From assembly GCF_000014265.1 (NCBI RefSeq), contig NC_008312.1, positions 7,050,001 through 7,082,000 of the forward strand: DNA of 32,000 nt, written 5' to 3'. Of this stretch, positions 7,924-26,711 are shown piece by piece. Within the stretch, counting starts at the first letter, position 1; each line of letters opens with the position of its first letter. The notes under the pieces are model-generated. The model searched no databases and had not been told where the DNA came from. It saw only the letters and a program-made list of their open reading frames with translations. Origin of the DNA: Trichodesmium erythraeum IMS101. GTDB taxonomy: Bacteria > Cyanobacteriota > Cyanobacteriia > Cyanobacteriales > Microcoleaceae. The position numbers and the translations under genes were made by a program.

Positions 7924-8847
7924 CTAAAACCTATCAATTCGTCGCGCTTTATCTGGTAATCTTGCTTCTTTTTGACCGATAATTCTTGCCCTACCATTTA
8001 GCAAACCAATAGGAGTATTAAATAACTCCACTAATTCGGCTTTACCTGATATAATTTTCACCGTTGTTAACGGTAATTCTTTTAATAACCATCTGCTCAA
8101 ACGATACAAATATTCTTTAGTTTTCAACTCTCTCATTAAATCAACACCGTACAGTTCATGCAAATATTTATTTGACTTTCCATACCTGCGCCATTGACTT
8201 TGTAAATCCTTCCATGTTGAACGATGTCGATGTCTAACTATCGCATTTTCTACAAATTTAAACTGATAAGATGTTTCTCGTAAAATCCGCCAACAAATAT
8301 CAGCATCTCCACCTGTTGTTAAGTAAGAACGAAATAATCCTACTTCTAAAAATACTTGCTTTCTAATAGCTAAATTAGCAGTTTGACCATAAGGGCAAAA
8401 TGGATGAGCTAAAGTATATTTTTGGGAGAGAATCTCTTGTTTATCTGCATATTTTTCTAATAAACTTTTACCAGGCAAAGAAATTACTTCTCCTACTACA
8501 ATACCAACATTAGGGTCAGAAAATGGCTGAATTAAATTTTCTAACCATTGAGGTTGAGGACGACAGTCAGCATCAGTAAAAGCAATTATTTCGCTATTAG
8601 CTGCCCGAATACCAGCATTACGAGCAGCATAAGAACTTTGAATCTGATTTTCTTGCAGTGGGCGAATTGTATTTGCCTTTGACTCTGCTGCTGCTTGAAT
8701 AATGGAACTACTATGATCGCTACTATTGTTATCTACTAATAAATATTCTACTTGCTCAAGAGTGTAGGTTTGCGATCGTAGACATTCTATCAAGTCTGGT
8801 AAATCTTTCTCACCATTATAAATTGGTATAACTACAGAAACCAACAT
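7924..8847 (-). CDS. Family 2 glycosyltransferase
   Basis: 307 aa. It starts with VSVVIPIYNGEKDL, has the FTDADC (DxD) motif and a downstream GGDADICWR block, all typical of the GT2 (GT-A) fold. Confidence 0.85.
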   Translation of the reverse strand: MLVSVVIPIYNGEKDLPDLIECLRSQTYTLEQVEYLLVDNNSSDHSSSIIQAAAESKANTIRPLQENQIQSSYAARNAGIRAANSEIIAFTDADCRPQPQWLENLIQPFSDPNVGIVVGEVISLPGKSLLEKYADKQEILSQKYTLAHPFCPYGQTANLAIRKQVFLEVGLFRSYLTTGGDADICWRILRETSYQFKFVENAIVRHRHRSTWKDLQSQWRRYGKSNKYLHELYGVDLMRELKTKEYLYRLSRWLLKELPLTTVKIISGKAELVELFNTPIGLLNGRARIIGQKEARLPDKARRIDRF

Positions 8848-16550: not shown

Positions 16551-16917
16551 TTTTTACTGTCTATTGATTCTAAATTCCATGCTTTAACAAACTCTACAGG
16601 GCAAACCCATATAATTAGCTAATTTCTATATATACATATTACTTTTTCAAATTAAATAAACACCATAGTTGGAAATTCTATTTTCAACAAATGTCATCAA
16701 CCAGAGTTTGTTGACAAGATACGTAGGCCCTACTTACCTCTACCAAATATTAAATTCGTTTTACTAATGATGCTTTGAATCAACACTATTTGCAACTAGA
16801 GGCCAAAAAGTTGCCCTAATGTCTATTGTTAAGTTAAATTTAGTTAAGATTATTAAATCTTAAAAATTACAAGGCCTACTTAAGATACGTAATTTTACTA
16901 AAAAAGGACATTTTTTG

Positions 16918-18804
16918 ATGAAAATTTCTTGGAGAACAATTGTACTTTGGACTATACCAGCTTTGGTCATTGGTTTTTTTCTTTGGCAAGGGACATTTGG
17001 TCAGACACAAGTCAATATGGGTAGTAACACTGCAAGTACCCGCATGAGCTATGGTCGATTTTTAGATTATTTACAAGCGGATAGAGTCACCAGTGTAGAC
17101 CTTTATGATAATGGTCGTACAGCTATTGTAGAAGCAGTAGATCCAGAATTAGATAATCGAGTACAAAGATTACGAGTAGATTTACCTGTTAATTCCCCAA
17201 GCCTAATTTCTCGTCTGCGAGAAGCAAATATTAACTTTGACAGCCACCCTCCACGGAATGAAGGGGCAGTGTGGGGTTTATTAGGAAATTTGATTTTCCC
17301 AATTTTATTAATTGTTGGTCTGTTCTTCCTATTCCGTCGTTCTAGTAATGTACCTGGTGGCCCTGGACAAGCAATGAACTTTGGTAAGTCAAAAGCTCGT
17401 TTCTCAATGGAGGCCAAAACAGGTGTTTTGTTTGATGATGTGGCTGGGGTTGATGAGGCCAAAGAAGAGTTACAAGAGGTTGTGACTTTCTTGAAAAAAC
17501 CAGAAAGATTTACGGCTGTAGGAGCGCGTATTCCCAAAGGTGTGCTTTTAGTTGGTCCTCCTGGAACTGGTAAAACTTTGTTGGCTAAGGCCATCGCTGG
17601 TGAAGCTGGTGTACCATTCTTCAGTATTTCTGGTTCGGAATTTGTGGAAATGTTTGTTGGTGTCGGTGCTTCCCGTGTACGGGATCTTTTCAAAAAGGCT
17701 AAGGAAAATGCTCCTTGTATTATCTTTATTGATGAAATTGATGCGGTTGGTAGACAACGGGGTGCTGGTATTGGTGGGGGCAATGACGAACGAGAGCAAA
17801 CTCTTAACCAACTACTAACTGAAATGGATGGTTTTGAGGGTAATAGTGGAATTATTATTATTGCTGCTACTAACCGACCTGATGTTTTAGACTCTGCATT
17901 GTTACGCCCTGGTAGATTTGACCGTCAAGTTACTGTTGATGCTCCTGATATTAAGGGTCGTTTATCAATTCTAGATGTTCATGCTCGTGATAAGAAGTTA
18001 AGTAGCGAAATATCTCTAGAGGCGATCGCTCGTCGGACTCCTGGTTTTACAGGTGCAGATTTAGCTAACCTATTGAATGAAGCTGCTATTCTGACTGCTC
18101 GTCGTCGTAAAGAAGCAATTACTATGCTAGAAATTAATGATGCTGTAGACAGAGTGGTTGCAGGTATGGAAGGTACCCCGCTCATGGATGGTAAGAGCAA
18201 GCGACTTATTGCTTATCATGAAGTTGGTCATGCTATTGTTGGTACTTTACTTAAAGAACATGATCCTGTGCAAAAAGTGACTTTGGTGCCTCGTGGTCAA
18301 GCTCGTGGTCTTACCTGGTTTATGCCTAATGAAGATCAAGGTTTAATCTCTAGATCACAAATCTTGGCTCGCATTACTGGTGCTCTTGGTGGTCGCGCTG
18401 CTGAGAAAGTCATTTTTGGGGATGCTGAGGTGACAACTGGTGCTAGTAATGACCTTCAACAAGTTACAGGGATGGCACGTCAAATGGTAACTCGTTACGG
18501 TATGTCTGATTTAGGCCTGATGTCTCTGGAAACTCAACAAAGTGAGGTGTTCTTGGGTCGAGATTTAATGACTCGTTCAGAATATTCTGATGAAATTGCT
18601 TCTCGTATTGATTCTCAAGTCCGCACTATTGTAGAACATTGCTATGAAAATGCTTGTGATATGATGCAGGATAACCGGATTGTTATAGATCGTTTGGTTG
18701 ATTTGTTAATTGAAAAAGAGACTATTGATGGTGACGAATTCCGGCAAATTGTGGCTGAATATACTAATGTTCCAGAAAAAGACCGTTATGTTCCTGTTCT
18801 CTAA
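16918..18804 (+). CDS. ftsH: ATP-dependent zinc metalloprotease FtsH
   Basis: It has an N-terminal TM pair, Walker A GPPGTGKT, Walker [10 protein letters not shown], the SRH region [19 protein letters not shown] and the zinc site HEVGHAIV. The track starts at TTG 16915. ATG 16918 is the likelier start. Confidence 0.97.
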
Positions 18805-18845
18805 TATACTTTTATTTGGTAAATCAGAGATGATTGAGATTAGTT

Positions 18846-19097
18846 CTAGGAAGAATTGATTATACCTTCTCTGAAATAACTAATTAGTATCTCAAAGGTC
18901 GAACTCTCCAGTTGTGTTCGGCCTTTGATATCTAGTTTCCGTTTGAAACATTGGATATCCGATATAGCAATGAGCGCTGGTATATTTACAAATTTCTGGA
19001 AAGGCCAAATAGCTAAAAGTCTTATATTATCGTCAATTGATTCCCCCTGTTGCCAGATGAGCTTTTGCCTGCGCACAGCGCTATAAATGTAAGCCAA
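18846..19097 (-). CDS. Small ORF c: HicB/UPF0150-like domain, paralogous to ORF a. It has no ATG and lies in frame with ORF b across a TAG.
   Basis: SAVRRQKLIWQQGESIDDNIRLLAIWP...IPALIAISDIQ parallels ORF a's SALRKKKLIYQKDLEDGNVLAIQP...IEEIAILIERL. The only start is TTG 19097, with no obvious SD. It is separated from the ORF b stop (TAG 19101-19103) by a single codon in the same frame. Confidence 0.45.
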   Translation of the reverse strand: MAYIYSAVRRQKLIWQQGESIDDNIRLLAIWPFQKFVNIPALIAISDIQCFKRKLDIKGRTQLESSTFEILISYFREGIINSS

Positions 19098-19100
19098 CGA

Positions 19101-19475
19101 CTATAACCAAATTGACTGTCCTACCAACATTTTCCCTTGATGCTCTTCACACCATTTTTTTGATATTCCCATTTGATATTTGATAGTTGCTTTTGGAGAA
19201 ACTCCGAAAACATCCATGATTTCAGACTCAGTTAGAAGAATAAGTGTGCTTACTTTATAAGTTGGTGGTGGTGCTAAAGCAATAAGATAACGTACCTGAT
19301 TAACTTTAATCTGTAATTTTTGATTCCAAGTTTCATTAATAATCTCCTCAGAACCGGGATGATGACGACCAAAATCAACAGTAATACTTTTACCAGTATG
19401 ATGCTTGATTTCCAAAGCTTGATGACGAATATCAGGAAATAAACCAGATGAAGGTGGATAATTTATCCCAAGCAT
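19101..19475 (-). CDS. Small ORF b: N-terminal HicA-toxin-like segment plus an uncharacterised C-terminal half
   Basis: IRHQALEIKHHTGKSITVDFGRHHPGSEEIINETWNQKLQ resembles the HicA core pattern GSH......G..vtvP.H..kel..gtl..il.q. GAGG (19483-19486) lies 7 nt before the ATG. The ATG overlaps the end of ORF a by 13 nt. This is recognition by eye only. Confidence 0.5.
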   Translation of the reverse strand: MLGINYPPSSGLFPDIRHQALEIKHHTGKSITVDFGRHHPGSEEIINETWNQKLQIKVNQVRYLIALAPPPTYKVSTLILLTESEIMDVFGVSPKATIKYQMGISKKWCEEHQGKMLVGQSIWL

Positions 19476-19717
19476 TTAGCTACCTCAAATTCAAACCAAT
19501 TCCCTTTTGGTCGAACTTCTAAAAGTCTACCATTACTATCTCTTGGTGAGTCTATTTCCATTAGTCTTTCTATCAAAATCGCTATTTCTTCTATTGTGTA
19601 GAAAAGAGAAGTGTCTAAGGCAGGTTGAATTGCTAATACATTACCATCCTCCAAATCCTTTTGGTAAATTAATTTCTTTTTTCTCAAAGCTGATTGTAAG
19701 AGTTTTTCTCTTTCCAT
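19463..19717 (-). CDS. Small ORF a: HicB/UPF0150-like antitoxin-fold protein with no DNA-binding domain
   Basis: KLIYQKDLEDGNVLAIQPALDTSLFYTIEEIAILIERLMEI resembles the HicB N-domain pattern y.v.le.eedGgy.a.vPaLpGc.sqG.TleEA..n..eAiel. It starts 11 nt after the methyltransferase stop. Confidence 0.5.
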   Translation of the reverse strand: MEREKLLQSALRKKKLIYQKDLEDGNVLAIQPALDTSLFYTIEEIAILIERLMEIDSPRDSNGRLLEVRPKGNWFEFEVAKCLG

Positions 19718-19728
19718 ATTGTGATACC

Positions 19729-21636
19729 TTATGGCTTGTTTAAAAGTAAAATTTGTTCTATTTGCTGAATATCATCATCGACTAAATCAAACCAGTTATA
19801 AATGAGTTGATCGTTATTTTTTTCAAGAATTTGTTGTTCTTTTTGATCGGTAGATTGTAAAATTAGGCGGGTATTTTCTATCAATTGATTGACAGTAGCT
19901 AGCGACTTTGCTTGTCTAAAGTTAGGTATGGGATAAGATCTTAAATAAGATGCCCAATAGCGAAACCTTTTAGAATAAAGTTTATTACCACTGGTTACTT
20001 TATGAAAAAATTCCAAAACCTTAGAATTTAATAAAGATAATATCAGCAAGTAATGTTCAAGTGACTCTTCTTTTAGCAAAATATAAAAACAAGTGCCATT
20101 AACAAATAATCCCTTGTTATCTATAGCAAAACAATTGTGAGTTGAAATGTCTGGTGTAACAATCTTAAGATGTTGAAAATCGGTGGGTGATTGATGTACC
20201 CAAATCTCGTACCATTGTCGTCCAGTTTTTTTGATATAAATACGCGCTTCTAGTTGTTTTTGATGAGACAGTAAATATTGTTGAGTATTTGGATATAAAT
20301 TTAAGTTAATGGGTAAAAGTTTATTGTTTTGATATTTGTAAGGATATAAAACATAGAGATCGCTTTTTTCCTGCCAGTCACAATACTATTTACAAACATT
20401 ATGGCTTTCCAAAAGTGGAAAAATTACTGTTGACTCTAAATGGAGATTATTAATAAAATCAAAGGTCATAGGTTTGATAAAAACATTATCAGCCGTTGTT
20501 TTAATTCCTACACTGATTTTGTGACTAATATCAGCTAAGGTGCAAAATGTATTTTGTTTCAGTTTTTCAATAAGTTTTTGTTCTCTAGTAGTATGAAATG
20601 TCCATATAGATTGATTTATTTTTGGTAAAGCGGTTTTGAATTGTTTAACCTGAAAGTAGCGTTGTTGCCACTGGATAAATTCACAATGAGGTTGTTGGTT
20701 TAATAACTCGAATAAATTCTCAACTTTTAGATAGTTAGTGGCTGGTTTTCTCATTTGTTGAATGGAGGTGTAAAGAAAATAATCTGAAGCAGGAATTTGT
20801 TTTTCCAAAATTAATATCGTAGGTAAAATTGCAGCTTCAAATAATTTAGTATCCCCAAGATCGATAATTTCAATCAGACTATAATGTTTGAAAATATAAG
20901 TTCTTAATGCTTTTGCTCCTTGAGTTGTTAACAGCTTATTAGAGATAATATAACTTAATTGACCTTGTGGCTTGAGTAAATAATGCCCCAATTCAATAAA
21001 TAATCCGGCTATATCAAAGTGTCCACGAGCCGTTTGATATCTTTCAATGTAGTGATTTCGACGTTCTTTTGGTTGTAAATTTTGAATCCGAATATAAGGA
21101 GGATTGCCAATTATACAATCAAATCCACCTTCTGCAAAGACTTTAGGAAAGTTTTCTTGCCAATTAAATATCTTAGGATTTGAGAATAGCAAATTAATTT
21201 GATAATCGGTAAAGGAATGAAGTAAAGCATCACCTTGAAAAATTGGGATATTTACCTCTTTAACCCCCAGTAAGTTTGCTTTATTTTTGAGTTGTTTTTT
21301 AGCTTCATGTACAGCATTATTTTCAATATCAACACCATACAAATTATTTTCTAAAATATGGCGAATATCTTGAGGTTTTAGTTGTCCAAACTGCTTTTGC
21401 CACAATGAACAAAGTAAATCAAAGGCTTTGAGCAGAAATAACCCAGAACCACAAGCTGGATCGAGTATTTTGATTTTGTCCAACGGCGTGAATTTGTTTT
21501 TGTCCAAATAAGAGAATAGGGTGTGACTAACAATATAATCAATCAGGTTATCAGGGGTATAATGAACACCTAATAATTTACGCTGTTGTGCTGAATATTG
21601 AGTTTGATGATTCCAGGCTGAAGATTCTATTTTCAT
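19729..21636 (-). pseudogene. Gamma-class N6-adenine DNA methyltransferase (Eco57I/TaqI-like, with a C-terminal target-recognition domain) interrupted by one in-frame TAG
   Basis: Motifs are GVHYTP, ILDPACGSGLFLL (AdoMet motif I) and IGNPPYIR (motif IV, NPPY). The track ORFs 20386..21636 and 19729..20079 share one frame. My translation of 20080-20385 has no other stop. It reads ...ESHNVCK*YCDWQEKSDLYVLYPYKYQNNKLLPINLNLYPNTQQYLLSHQKQLEARIYIKKTGRQWYEIWVHQSPTDFQHLKIVTPDISTHNCFAIDNKGLFVNGTCFYILLKEES... The TAG is at 20386-20388. Confidence 0.85.
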
Positions 21637-22001: not shown

Positions 22002-23312
22002 ATGGCAATTTCAACAGAATATAAACAACGACGCAAACAATTAATAACAAAAATTGGCAATGGTACGGCTATATTTAGAAGTGCGCCAATGGCTGTAATG
22101 CACAATGATGTAGAATATGCTTATCGTCAAGATAGCGATTTTTTTTATTTAACAGGTTTTAATGAACCGGAAGCTGTGGCAGTTATTGCACCACACCATG
22201 AAAAGCATAAATTTGTTCTGTTTGTACAACCAAAAGACCAATTAAAAGAAACTTGGACTGGTTATCGTGCTGGAGTGGAAGTTGCTAAGGAAAAGTATGG
22301 TGCTGATGCAGCTTTTTCTATTAATGAACTGAATAAAAAGTTGCCTGAATATTTGAAAAAGGCTGATAAAATTTATTATCGTTTGGGACGCGATCGCAAC
22401 TTTAATGAAACAGTATTTAAACATTGGCAAAATTTAATGCGAGTCTATCCGAAATCTGGCACTGGTCCAATAGCAATTCAAGATGCAGGGACAATTTTAC
22501 ACCCAATGCGTCTTGTTAAAAGTGCTAAGGAATTAGAACAAATGCAAAAAGCTGCTGATATTGCTGTTAATGCTCATAATTATGCGCTCAAGTTTGCTCA
22601 AGCAGGTCAGTTTGAATATCAAATTCAAGCGGAAATGGAGTATATATTTTCTCGTCATGGAGCTACTCCTGCTTATCCTTCTATTGTTGCTTCTGGTGCT
22701 AATTCTTGCATTCTTCATTATATAGAAAATAATCGACAAATGCAAGAAAATGATTTGTTATTAATTGATGCTGGAGCTGCTTACAATTATTATAATTCTG
22801 ATATTACTCGAACTTTTCCCATAAGTGGGAAATTTACCCCAGAACAAAAGATTATTTATGAGTTAGTTTTAAGGGCACAGTTAGCGGCAATTGAACAAGT
22901 AAAACCAGGAAATCCTTATAAGCAAATTCACGAGACAGCAGTGCGAGTTTTAGTGGAAGGATTGATAGATTTAGGAATGTTAAAAGGTAATATTGATGAA
23001 ATAATTGAAAAGGAAAAATATAGGCCTTTTTATATGCATAAAACCGGACATTGGTTGGGTTTAGATGTTCATGATGTAGGTGTTTATCAGTGGGGAGAAG
23101 AACCTCAAATTTTACAACCAGGACAAGTTTTGACTGTGGAACCTGGTATTTATATTGGTCTTAATATTAAACCTGCTGAAGGTCAACCGGAAATATATGA
23201 TCGTTGGCGTGGAATTGGAGTAAGAATTGAGGATGATGTTTTGGTTACTGCAGAAGGATGTGAAGTATTAACTGCGGGAGTGCCTAAGTTAGTTGAGGAT
23301 TTAGAAAGTTAA
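22002..23312 (+). CDS. pepP: Xaa-Pro aminopeptidase (aminopeptidase P, M24B family)
   Basis: 436 aa. The N-terminal AMP_N-like region has YRQDSDFFYLTGF. The pita-bread metal ligands are in order: LIDAGAAYNYYNSDITRTF, HKTGHWLGLDVHD, TVEPGIY and GVRIEDDVLVT. Confidence 0.9.
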   Translation: MAISTEYKQRRKQLITKIGNGTAIFRSAPMAVMHNDVEYAYRQDSDFFYLTGFNEPEAVAVIAPHHEKHKFVLFVQPKDQLKETWTGYRAGVEVAKEKYGADAAFSINELNKKLPEYLKKADKIYYRLGRDRNFNETVFKHWQNLMRVYPKSGTGPIAIQDAGTILHPMRLVKSAKELEQMQKAADIAVNAHNYALKFAQAGQFEYQIQAEMEYIFSRHGATPAYPSIVASGANSCILHYIENNRQMQENDLLLIDAGAAYNYYNSDITRTFPISGKFTPEQKIIYELVLRAQLAAIEQVKPGNPYKQIHETAVRVLVEGLIDLGMLKGNIDEIIEKEKYRPFYMHKTGHWLGLDVHDVGVYQWGEEPQILQPGQVLTVEPGIYIGLNIKPAEGQPEIYDRWRGIGVRIEDDVLVTAEGCEVLTAGVPKLVEDLES

Positions 23313-23313
23313 A

Positions 23314-23460
23314 TTATGATAGAAATTTTATAGCAACATTAGGAGTATATATCTTAACTTCTTGACTTATCCAATTATCAAATTGTTGGTGAACAATTTC
23401 ACTACGAGGATCGTTATTCACAAGAGCTATTAGTAAATTAGAATTAATAACAATATTCAT
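23314..23460 (-). pseudogene. Truncated PIN-domain (VapC-like) toxin remnant
   Basis: The minus-strand frame from ATG 23460 reads MNIVINSNLLIALVNNDPRSEIVHQQFDNWISQEVKIYTPNVAIKFLS*. This matches the N-terminal third of cyanobacterial PIN toxins. It is only 48 aa long, and Asn replaces the usual first catalytic Asp (VIDSN -> VINSN). Confidence 0.5.
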
Positions 23461-24554: not shown

Positions 24555-26711
24555 TTACTTCCTATTTCTCATAGATAAACCAATACGTTTCAACTTTTCA
24601 TTTACTTCCAAAACTCGCACTTTTACTACTTGCCCAACTTTCACAACTTGCTTGGTATCTTTAACAAAATAATCTGCTAATTGAGAAATATGCACTAATC
24701 CATCTTGATGAACCCCCACATCAACAAATGCACCAAAATTTGCCACATTAGTTACTATTCCCTCTAACTCCATTCCTACTTCTAAATCCCTAATTTATTT
24801 AATGCCTTCTCGAAAATTTGCATACTTAAATTCTGCTCTAGGATCTCGCCCTGGTTTTTCTAATTCACTAATAATATCTTTTAGAGTTGGTTCCCCAATT
24901 TTATCAGTAACATACTTTTTTAAATCCACATATTTTATTTTATTATAAATTTGGTTAATTTGATTTATTGGCACTCCTAAATCTTGAGCGATCGCCTCAA
25001 CCACAAAATAACTTTCTGGATGTACTGCCGTATTATCTAAAGGATTTTCACCACCACGAATCCGCAAAAATCCAGCACAAAGTTCAAAAGTTTTTGCTCC
25101 TAATTTTGAAACTTGTAAAATTTCCTGACGACTTTTAAAAGCTCCATTTTCATTCCGATATTTAACTAAATTTTTTGCCACTGTAGAACTCATACCAGAA
25201 ACAAAAATTAGTAGTTCTTTAGAAGCAGTATTCAAATCTACTCCCACATAATTAACACTACTTTCTACCGTCTCATCTAACTTTTTTTTCAACAATTTTT
25301 GGTCTACATCATGTTGATATTGACCGACTCCAATAGACTTCGGTTCAATTTTCACAAGTTCTGCTAAAGGGTCTTGTAAACGTCTACCAATACTAATAGC
25401 TCCCCGGACCGTAATATCTAAATCAGGAAATTCTTCTATGGCTACTTTAGAAGCAGAATAAATCGAAGCTCCAGATTCATTAACCATAACTTTTATTGGC
25501 TTTTCTTCCAAAGTAGAAATTACCTCAGTAATAAACTCATCTGTTTCTCTTCCTGCCGTACCATTACCAATAGCAATTAGTTCAATTTTATACTTTTGAA
25601 TTAACTCTTTAATTGTAATACTAGCTTGTTGCTTTTTTGCCACAGATTGATGGGGAAATATAGCTTGATATTCTAAAAATTTACCTGTTTCATCTAACAC
25701 TGCAACTTTACACCCGGTTCTAAATCCTGGGTCAATTCCTAAAGTTGGTTTCATCCCTGCAGGAGGAGATAATAATAACTCCCTAAGATTAGTTTCAAAA
25801 GTTTTAATTGACTCAATATCTGCCTCTGCTTTTTTTTGGGTTCTTACTTCATTAATTAGGGAATTTTTCATCAAACGATTAAAAGCATCTTTAAGCATTT
25901 CCTGATAAAAAATTCTGATTTCTTTGACTCTAGTACGAATTTCTGAATCTGCTAAATAAGATAGTATAAATTCTCGGTCAAAATCAATATCTAAACTTAA
26001 TACTTCTTCCGTTTCTCCTCGTAACAAAGCCAAAATATTATGAGGAGCAATATCTTTAACATTTACCCGAAAATTTCGGTACATTTCAAATTTAGTCGTA
26101 CCTTCTGGATAATCATTTTTTATTTTGGAAGTAAAACAACCAGAGTTGAGAAAATATTCTCGAATATAACTCCTTAACTCTGCCTTTTCTGCCACTGCTT
26201 CTGCCAGAATATCAGACGCTCCTTGGATAGCATCTTCTATATTTTTTACTCCTTTTTCTTCAGCAATATATTTAACTGCTTCTTGTTCAAGAGATATAAT
26301 TTTTGCTTGAGGATGATTTTGAGATTGGATAAATTCTGCCAAAGGTTCTAAACCTTTTTCTCTAGCAATAGTTGCTCTAGTTCGGCGCTTTGGCTTGTAG
26401 GGAAGATAGAGGTCTTCTAATTCTGTTTTCTGCAAACAAGACTCTATTTTTTCCTTTAATTCTTCTGTAAGTTTACCAGTTTCACTAATTGCTTTTAATA
26501 TAACTTTTTTTCTTTCTTCAAGTTCTTGAAGATAAGTATATCTATCCCAAATATTCCGCAATTGAGTTTCATCCAGGGAACCAGTATATTCTTTTCGATA
26601 ACGAGCTACAAAGGGAATAGTTGCTCCTTCGCTTAAAAGTTTTAGAGCATTTTTAGTATTTTTAGGATTAATATTTAATTCTTGAGAAATATATCTATTT
26701 ATTTCCATCAT
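24555..26711 (-). pseudogene. tex: Tex (S1-domain transcription accessory protein) interrupted by one in-frame TAA between the body and the S1 domain
   Basis: The 638-aa ORF has Tex N-terminal, YqgF-like and helix-hairpin-helix regions (IPFVARYRKEYTG, LGIDPGFRTGCKVAVLD). The 72-aa ORF is a canonical S1 domain ([28 protein letters not shown]). Both are in one frame and read [20 protein letters not shown]. The TAA is at 24795-24797. Confidence 0.9.

Follow-up and report, generated by a model that had tools for sequence, protein, structure and literature searches.

The ftsH–pepP interval of Trichodesmium erythraeum IMS101: a probable decayed Type II restriction-modification cassette

What is a compact block of minus-strand frames doing between two plus-strand genes of a cyanobacterial chromosome, and does it represent a new kind of defence or addiction system? 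The block in question occupies positions 18846–21636 (minus strand) of a 32,000-nt stretch of Trichodesmium erythraeum IMS101 (NC_008312.1), hereafter the window, and holds a methyltransferase frame followed by three small open reading frames (ORFs), a, b and c. Its left flank is ftsH (16915–18804), which is convergent with the block, and its right flank is pepP, the gene for aminopeptidase P (22002–23312), which is divergent from the methyltransferase. A preliminary description made from the DNA sequence had read the block as an N6-adenine methyltransferase coupled to a HicAB-like toxin-antitoxin module, and had named a decaying remnant of a defence cassette as a fallback. The layout it gave, with ftsH and pepP both on the plus strand, is borne out by the coordinates, and all of its spacings are reproduced: the methyltransferase frame closes 11 nt (19718–19728) before ORF a opens, 13 nt (19463–19475) are shared by ORFs a and b, and the TAG stop of ORF b is followed by a single codon, TCG, and then by the TTG start of ORF c. 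Proteins ABG53571–ABG53575 of T. erythraeum IMS101 are identical to translations from this block and from pepP. The content of the block, however, leads us to a different answer, which we hold with high confidence: it is a decayed two-gene Type II restriction-modification (R-M) cassette, consisting of a methyltransferase (M) pseudogene, a restriction endonuclease (R) pseudogene made up of ORFs a and b, and a spurious ORF c.

The methyltransferase and restriction genes

The M gene is one 636-codon frame (19729–21636, minus strand) of the gamma-class, N6-adenine, M.BseCI-like type, interrupted by a premature TAG at codon 417 (20386–20388, minus strand). Read from 21636 to 19729, the frame encodes 416 amino acids (aa), the TAG, and then 218 codons holding a TaqI_C domain, and the IMS101 annotation divides it into two genes (ABG53574, 416 aa; ABG53573, 116 aa). 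Once the stop is repaired, the 635-aa product matches Pfam Eco57I (2.4e-36), N6_Mtase (1.4e-15) and TaqI_C (1.3e-9), and the motifs DPACGSG and NPPY can be read in the translation. The closest solved relative is M.BseCI (PDB 7qw5; E = 3e-69, residues 15–611 against 9–564 of 585), and the Okeania orthologue gives an end-to-end match to the PADLOC MTase_II model (2e-107). The N6-adenine class proposed in the preliminary description holds, but the single intact gene that it assumed does not, given the in-frame TAG. Codon 417 is TGG (tryptophan) in Okeania and in all other Trichodesmium contigs covering the site (L044–L051, L056 and L058–L060), and Trp417 aligns with a tryptophan in M.BseCI. Within this comparison of contigs, TAG is seen only in the window and in an identical metagenome contig (L043); strain GBRTRLIN201 has the identical 416-aa product, and intact 635-aa orthologues occur in an Okeania metagenome-assembled genome (MAG), in T. 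erythraeum 21-75 and in several Trichodesmium MAGs. Since the TaqI_C recognition domain lies at residues 462–549 of the repaired protein, that is, beyond the stop, the TAG removes the target-recognition domain. Two other identities for this enzyme were considered and rejected. NCBIfam PglX, of the bacteriophage exclusion (BREX) systems, scores it at 121.7 and 93.9 bits against cut-offs of 400 and 500, and the PADLOC Type IIG matches span only the methyltransferase half of their profiles; by Pfam, the 635-aa protein has no additional nuclease or BREX domain.

The adjoining ORF a (19463–19717, minus strand; Tery_4596) and ORF b (19101–19475, minus strand; Tery_4595) are the first and second halves of a single gene of about 205 aa (19101–19717, minus strand), which belongs to an uncharacterised family. 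A query in which a, b and c were fused returned 301 homologues of about 205–208 aa, each covering a and b only, and the 120 of these that were listed are 67–92% identical to the query, are named 'hypothetical' and carry no Pfam domain. For intact homologues overall, identity ranges from 57 to 92%. The homologues are collinear with a and b and read straight across the a/b junction as ...AKCLGYNYPPSSG... At the corresponding DNA, the window reads GGATA-AAT, intact Trichodesmium haplotypes read GGATATAAT and Okeania reads GGATACAAT, from which it follows that one base, a T by comparison with the intact haplotypes, was lost between 19464 and 19463. This 1-nt deletion produces the TAA stop of ORF a (19463–19465, minus strand). 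The overlap that had been taken as tight coupling of two small ORFs is thus the footprint of a deletion within one gene, and the junction between b and c, read earlier as a further sign of coupling, is the true stop of the restriction gene followed by intergenic DNA.

The block had also been said to contain no recognisable restriction endonuclease, yet ORFs a and b together correspond to one, as indicated by a PADLOC match, a motif and the gene context. An intact homologue matches PADLOC REase_II (PDLC03565) at E = 7e-11 over residues 68–171, and ORF b alone does so at 1.5e-7, the match being confined to the core of the profile (positions 233–336 of 359). In an alignment of 40 sequences, P95-D96 and K105 of a PD...ExK motif are invariant and E103 is conserved in at least 90%, and E76 and E78, on the helix preceding the motif, are conserved as well. 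The AlphaFold model is confident (predicted local distance difference test 81.7, predicted template-modelling score 0.84), and eight of the ten top ranks of a Foldseek search against the PDB are Sau3AI, PvuII and MutH, with EcoRV, DpnI and HinP1I lower, none of them significant. On these features we infer that the family has nuclease activity.

The pairing of M and R recurs well beyond Trichodesmium. A scan of R contexts with one genome per species returned 35 loci, spanning more than ten phyla and lying in varied neighbourhoods, and in 28 of them a methyltransferase homologue stands directly upstream of R. The hosts include Planctomycetota with the anammox Brocadia, Ignavibacteriota, Bacteroidota, KSB1 and Anaerolineae, together with Sumerlaeota, Latescibacterota, Gammaproteobacteria, Acetothermia, an Okeania cyanobacterium and a Nitrosotalea archaeon. 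In an Okeania MAG (L001), a metagenome contig (L003) and an Acetothermia MAG (L006), the 205-aa gene follows an Eco57I+TaqI_C methyltransferase of 634–642 aa, and the flanks are unrelated. R is better conserved than M in the same genome pairs (70–76% against 44–56% identity), and the same holds for a more distant group (about 59% against about 30%). Such conserved pairing across unrelated genomes marks the two genes as a mobile Type II R-M cassette, and the order of the block, which had been called non-standard for an R-M system, is the standard Type II order of M then R, broken by point lesions. The block does not recur elsewhere as the four genes first described, a and b being a single gene outside Trichodesmium and c not being conserved. 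At one locus (L035, 4418–6603), an R homologue with 60% identity follows a beta-class N6_N4 methyltransferase (PF01555) and a 175-aa ORF of unknown nature; a second, partial R copy lies at 8336–8569 of the same contig. A tblastn search of plasmids with R gave no match.

We therefore propose a model in which a Type II R-M cassette, with co-oriented M and R genes 11 nt apart, would have been acquired horizontally and inserted between ftsH and pepP in a Trichodesmium ancestor. In its intact state, the 635-aa M.BseCI-like N6-adenine methyltransferase would mark one specific site, and the PD-(D/E)XK-type endonuclease of about 205 aa would cut that site if unmethylated. Two lesions would then have disabled the cassette in IMS101: the TGG-to-TAG change at codon 417, truncating the methyltransferase ahead of its target-recognition domain, and the 1-nt deletion, splitting the endonuclease gene into ORFs a and b. 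Neither reading frame is intact in IMS101, M carrying the TAG and R the deletion, and what is left is a remnant only. The fallback offered in the preliminary description is accordingly borne out by the stop codon and the frameshift, and, judging from the sequence, the cassette has presumably lost all activity in this strain.

BseCI is a ClaI isoschizomer, and its methyltransferase M.BseCI modifies ATCGAT. In a word-depletion scan of 24 host loci around intact cassettes (236 kb, 2069 hexamers), ATCGAT was observed 99 times against 132 expected (0.75), a mild depletion like that of several other palindromes, and the most depleted hexamers were CAGCTG (15 observed, 52 expected) and GAGCTC (18 observed, 49 expected). 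Since CAGCTG is equally absent from the window (0 observed, 3.7 expected) and from the cassette-free locus of Okeania sp. KiyG1 (0 observed, 3.3 expected), its depletion is not attributable to this R-M system.

Origin and decay within Trichodesmium

The comparison with related genomes agrees with the earlier description of the block as an islet, and marks it as foreign. Okeania sp. KiyG1 has ftsH next to pepP, in the same orientation, and in the 1546-nt spacer between them neither cassette gene could be traced, by protein or by DNA. In another Okeania genome, the MAG L001, the cassette is present and convergent with ftsH, as it is in the window. A search around the block for flanking repeats as an insertion signature gave nothing convincing. 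Between the window and L001, the synonymous divergence (dS) of the cassette is 2–3 times below that of the adjacent ftsH (0.24 for the methyltransferase and 0.17 for R, against 0.51 for ftsH), and the cassette may have been exchanged between the Trichodesmium and Okeania lineages more recently than its flanks. Over the same comparison, the ratio of non-synonymous to synonymous divergence (omega) is about 0.2 for both cassette genes (0.19 for R), which places both under purifying selection for most of that divergence. The R orthologue in Okeania (L001 7956–8573) has a TGA at codon 7 of its 205-codon frame and is called from Met16 as a protein of 190 aa, and this copy may have been crippled independently.

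Within Trichodesmium, selection on the cassette is relaxed. Among nine contigs that were retrieved via ORF a and are at least 99.4% identical to the window over 6.4 kb, synonymous and non-synonymous changes number 2 and 10 in the methyltransferase and 0 and 5 in ORF b, against 7 and 1 in ftsH and 16 and 8 in pepP (Fisher's exact test of M and b versus the two flanks, p = 7e-5). The changes in ORF b in sister haplotypes include E22K, which replaces the glutamate of ExK, as well as H26N and G28R, so that the family-invariant H107 and G109 are affected, and in IMS101 itself R has the change G164E, at a glycine that is invariant in the family. On the IMS101 branch, the methyltransferase, polarised with Okeania, shows five missense changes in addition to W417* and not a single synonymous one.

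Decay has also taken more than one route. About 24 natural Trichodesmium contigs were sampled via intact R proteins, intact methyltransferase proteins and ORF a, and the haplotype comparison set L056, L058, L059 and L060 against L044–L051 and L061–L068. Haplotype H1 combines an intact methyltransferase with the 1-nt deletion in R and is represented by 15 contigs; H2, comprising the IMS101 window and L043, combines W417* in the methyltransferase with the same deletion in R. The R frame is intact in the other two haplotypes, the methyltransferase being broken by W479* (TGG to TGA) in H3 (L058 and L059) and by an 11-nt deletion (window 20106–20116) in H4 (L056 and L060). A further contig, L057, has an intact R frame, and its coverage does not extend to the methyltransferase lesion sites. 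None of the about 24 contigs has both M and R intact, and four independent lesions are seen, namely the 1-nt deletion in R and W417*, W479* and the 11-nt deletion in M. A variant at 19228 is found in all four combinations with the frameshift site, which suggests recombination between haplotypes.

A dead methyltransferase beside a live restriction enzyme is expected to be lethal, and R was therefore probably already harmless in the H3 and H4 lineages, in which M is dead. Candidate reasons at the level of the protein sequence are H73N and Q166E, carried by the Trichodesmium/Okeania R copy at positions conserved in 38 of 39 and 39 of 39 relatives, respectively, or G164E and G109R, carried by the H4 copies. 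It is also conceivable that premature termination of the methyltransferase may have abolished coupled expression of R, that the genome may encode another methyltransferase that protects the site, or that complementation between chromosome copies in polyploid cells may allow a broken M and an intact R to survive together.

Alternative explanations and ORF c

Several observations weigh against a decayed Type II R-M cassette. The R family has no match in Pfam, NCBIfam or PDB sequences, PDB sequence and profile searches with R returned nothing at E ≤ 10, and the Foldseek search against the PDB gave no significant match (best E = 0.26, template-modelling score at most 0.36); consequently, the name 'endonuclease' rests on one match to a defence hidden Markov model, the motif and the gene context. 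The truncated 416-aa methyltransferase retains all catalytic motifs, and RefSeq annotates a separate 193-aa TaqI_C fragment, so some residual activity of a split enzyme could persist. Finally, were R fully active, one would not expect natural haplotypes in which the methyltransferase is broken while the R frame is intact.

The last point bears on whether R is a classical toxic restriction enzyme at all, rather than a conditional, methyl-directed or nicking endonuclease resembling MutH or Sau3AI. We consider the latter unlikely. It is true that the combination of a dead M with an intact R arose twice (W479* in L058 and L059, the 11-nt deletion in L056 and L060), that no haplotype retains both genes, that Sau3AI and MutH stand among the top fold ranks, though not significantly, and that R, with its omega against Okeania, was selected until recently. 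Against this, the PADLOC model that R matches is one for Type II restriction enzymes, the cassette is scattered over more than ten phyla and varied neighbourhoods as selfish R-M systems are, and more mundane reasons for a harmless R are at hand in the substitutions, the lost coupled expression and the other methyltransferase discussed above. A similarly low probability attaches to the broader proposition that the widespread and strikingly well conserved family of about 205 aa is non-lethal without its methyltransferase, being conditional or strand-directed, or that copies with only M and copies with only R complement each other in polyploid Trichodesmium.

A second possibility, which we regard as very unlikely, is that the system still works in IMS101, either by a programmed frameshift between a and b or with a and b as two subunits, and with read-through of the TAG or complementing methyltransferase fragments. 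Other systems do include split methyltransferases. In a base-by-base comparison of 14 Trichodesmium contigs, ORF a is unchanged throughout, the E, H and G of the catalytic stretch are still in their ancestral state in ORF b of IMS101, and the 13-nt overlap supplies b with an ATG of its own. However, the a/b lesion is the simple loss of one T, the absence of changes in the 255 nt of ORF a is unremarkable at a local rate of about 8 per kb, and the substitutions described above argue against continued function, with nothing but non-synonymous changes in ORF b, invariant residues hit in sister haplotypes, the G164E of IMS101, and missense changes without synonymous ones on the IMS101 methyltransferase branch.

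ORF c (18846–19097, minus strand) is no gene but a chance reading frame within the spacer that separates ftsH from the restriction gene, and it is open in no lineage but that of IMS101. It has no Pfam or PADLOC family match, and its exact product is absent from a collection of 15 billion proteins. The DNA homology between Trichodesmium and Okeania ends at the stop codon of the restriction gene, the ORF c region not being alignable, and the ORF c codon TCA at 19040–19038 is TAA in 13 of 13 other Trichodesmium contigs examined. A real protein was nevertheless considered and rejected: HMMER, run over 1.8 billion representatives, returned three matches, one of them a repetitive surface protein whose score is a summed artefact of low-identity repeats and the other two small ORFs overlying a shared DNA element of about 125 nt. 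The idea that c is a second copy of the 5' end of R was rejected likewise; a BLAST comparison of a with c gave E = 0.006, but shuffled sequences do equally well, and the R family profile scores −0.2 bits on ORF c, ranking 79 among 1000 shuffles.

On the comparative data we reject the proposal that an intact methyltransferase is coupled to a HicAB-like toxin-antitoxin module, or to a new addiction or defence module, formed by a, b and c, and we find it scarcely credible. The ORFs are indeed small and closely spaced, and toxin-antitoxin genes do lie near pepP in three other contigs (L045, L048 and L051), though on its other side. But neither the three ORFs nor their fusion has a toxin-antitoxin match in Pfam, NCBIfam or PADLOC at E ≤ 1, the only family match of any kind at that threshold being that of b to REase_II; every homologue outside Trichodesmium, and some haplotypes within it, have a and b as a single gene; c is unconserved and interrupted in all other haplotypes; and the methyltransferase itself is interrupted. 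Errors of sequencing or assembly, which typically do take the form of single-base lesions, can be dismissed as the source of the stop codon and the frameshift in genes that would really be intact: the 84-aa and 124-aa products of a and b are indexed in more than 100 blocks of a contig collection and both are annotated in four independent Trichodesmium genomes or MAGs, and the 416-aa product of GBRTRLIN201 and the independent metagenome contig L043, 100% identical over 6420 nt with the TAG included, confirm the methyltransferase lesion.

The DNA element beneath ORF c is dispersed and non-coding, and occupies the middle of that frame (18962–19086, strand unassigned). Other contigs, from cyanobacteria or metagenomes, carry copies of 85–93% identity in unrelated loci (L053 2992–3121, L054 377–512 and L055 about 2306–2458). 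It has sharp boundaries and an imperfect terminal inverted repeat (ATAGCGCTG...CAGCGCT), and holds a variable number of GGCAACAG-like units. As a structured RNA it shows no stable fold (fold z about 0 on both strands), and a search for it as a high-copy miniature inverted-repeat transposable element gave only one further exact-pattern match in the metagenome collection. The sole Rfam match on the block is a sub-threshold one to Yfr11, a cyanobacterial small RNA, at 18810–18932 (plus strand), just past the ftsH stop (29.8 bits against a gathering score of 44, E = 0.08); it was not reproduced downstream of ftsH in two Okeania loci and is treated as a chance match. Scans of the block found promoter-like sites only at chance level and no terminator.

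The surrounding genes of the window are ordinary chromosomal ones, including adenylate cyclase, glycosyltransferases, mraY, a PAP-fibrillin gene, an actin-like gene, ftsH, pepP and tex. The tex gene (24555–26711, minus strand) stops at an in-frame TAA (24795–24797) after 638 aa extending from Tex_N to HHH_9, with the S1-domain part running on in frame to 24555; as other Trichodesmium contigs call one tex of 718 aa, IMS101 has a second strain-specific nonsense mutation no more than about 5 kb from its broken methyltransferase. The region beyond pepP varies among haplotypes: positions 339–1152 of L045, L048 and L051 carry RelB-like/ParE and FitA-like toxin-antitoxin genes, and the window has there only an ORF of 48 aa (23314–23460, minus strand), which has no family match. 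In a literature search, Tery_4595–4598 were mentioned in no paper, and no methylome or enzymology was found for them.

Comparison with known systems

In terms of annotation, Tery_4595–4598 and ORF c reduce to two pseudogenes and one chance frame, a collapse that fits the low coding density of the IMS101 genome, of which about 60% is coding (PMC4143802). The block is not a new kind of system but a broken case of ordinary Type II R-M. Its wider interest is modest, and lies in an unnamed but widespread restriction-enzyme family and in the haplotypes with a broken M and an intact R frame. The family of about 205 aa, called 'hypothetical' publicly, provides a candidate Type II restriction endonuclease as the partner of M.BseCI-like methyltransferases, and ranges from cyanobacteria to anammox Planctomycetes and an archaeon.

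The likeness of the block to HicAB is limited to the small size of the ORFs and their close spacing; unlike in HicAB, no domain is matched, a and b together make up one conserved protein of 205 aa, and c is unconserved. With the PD-(D/E)XK enzymes of the PvuII/EcoRV and MutH/Sau3AI groups, R shares P95-D96, E103, K105 and the helix glutamates, but it differs from them in having no significant fold match and no sequence similarity in the PDB, even by profile. A parallel is found in the BseCI system. Both are Type II systems with separate subunits, and the methyltransferase aligns over nearly its full length with M.BseCI, including DPACG, NPPY and a well-conserved C-terminal recognition domain, whereas the partner endonuclease belongs to a family without a named relative and both genes here are pseudogenes.

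The haplotypes can be compared with orphan methyltransferases and other R-M remnants. Death of R first is the classic route to an orphan methyltransferase, and most Trichodesmium haplotypes (15 contigs), with an intact M beside a frameshifted R, resemble that state. IMS101 represents the next step, in which the methyltransferase is dead too. H3 and H4 are reversed, with M broken and the R frame intact, an order of decay that is unexpected on this route. With its four lesions, no doubly intact haplotype, and broken M found beside intact R, the cassette offers a small natural case of R-M decay.

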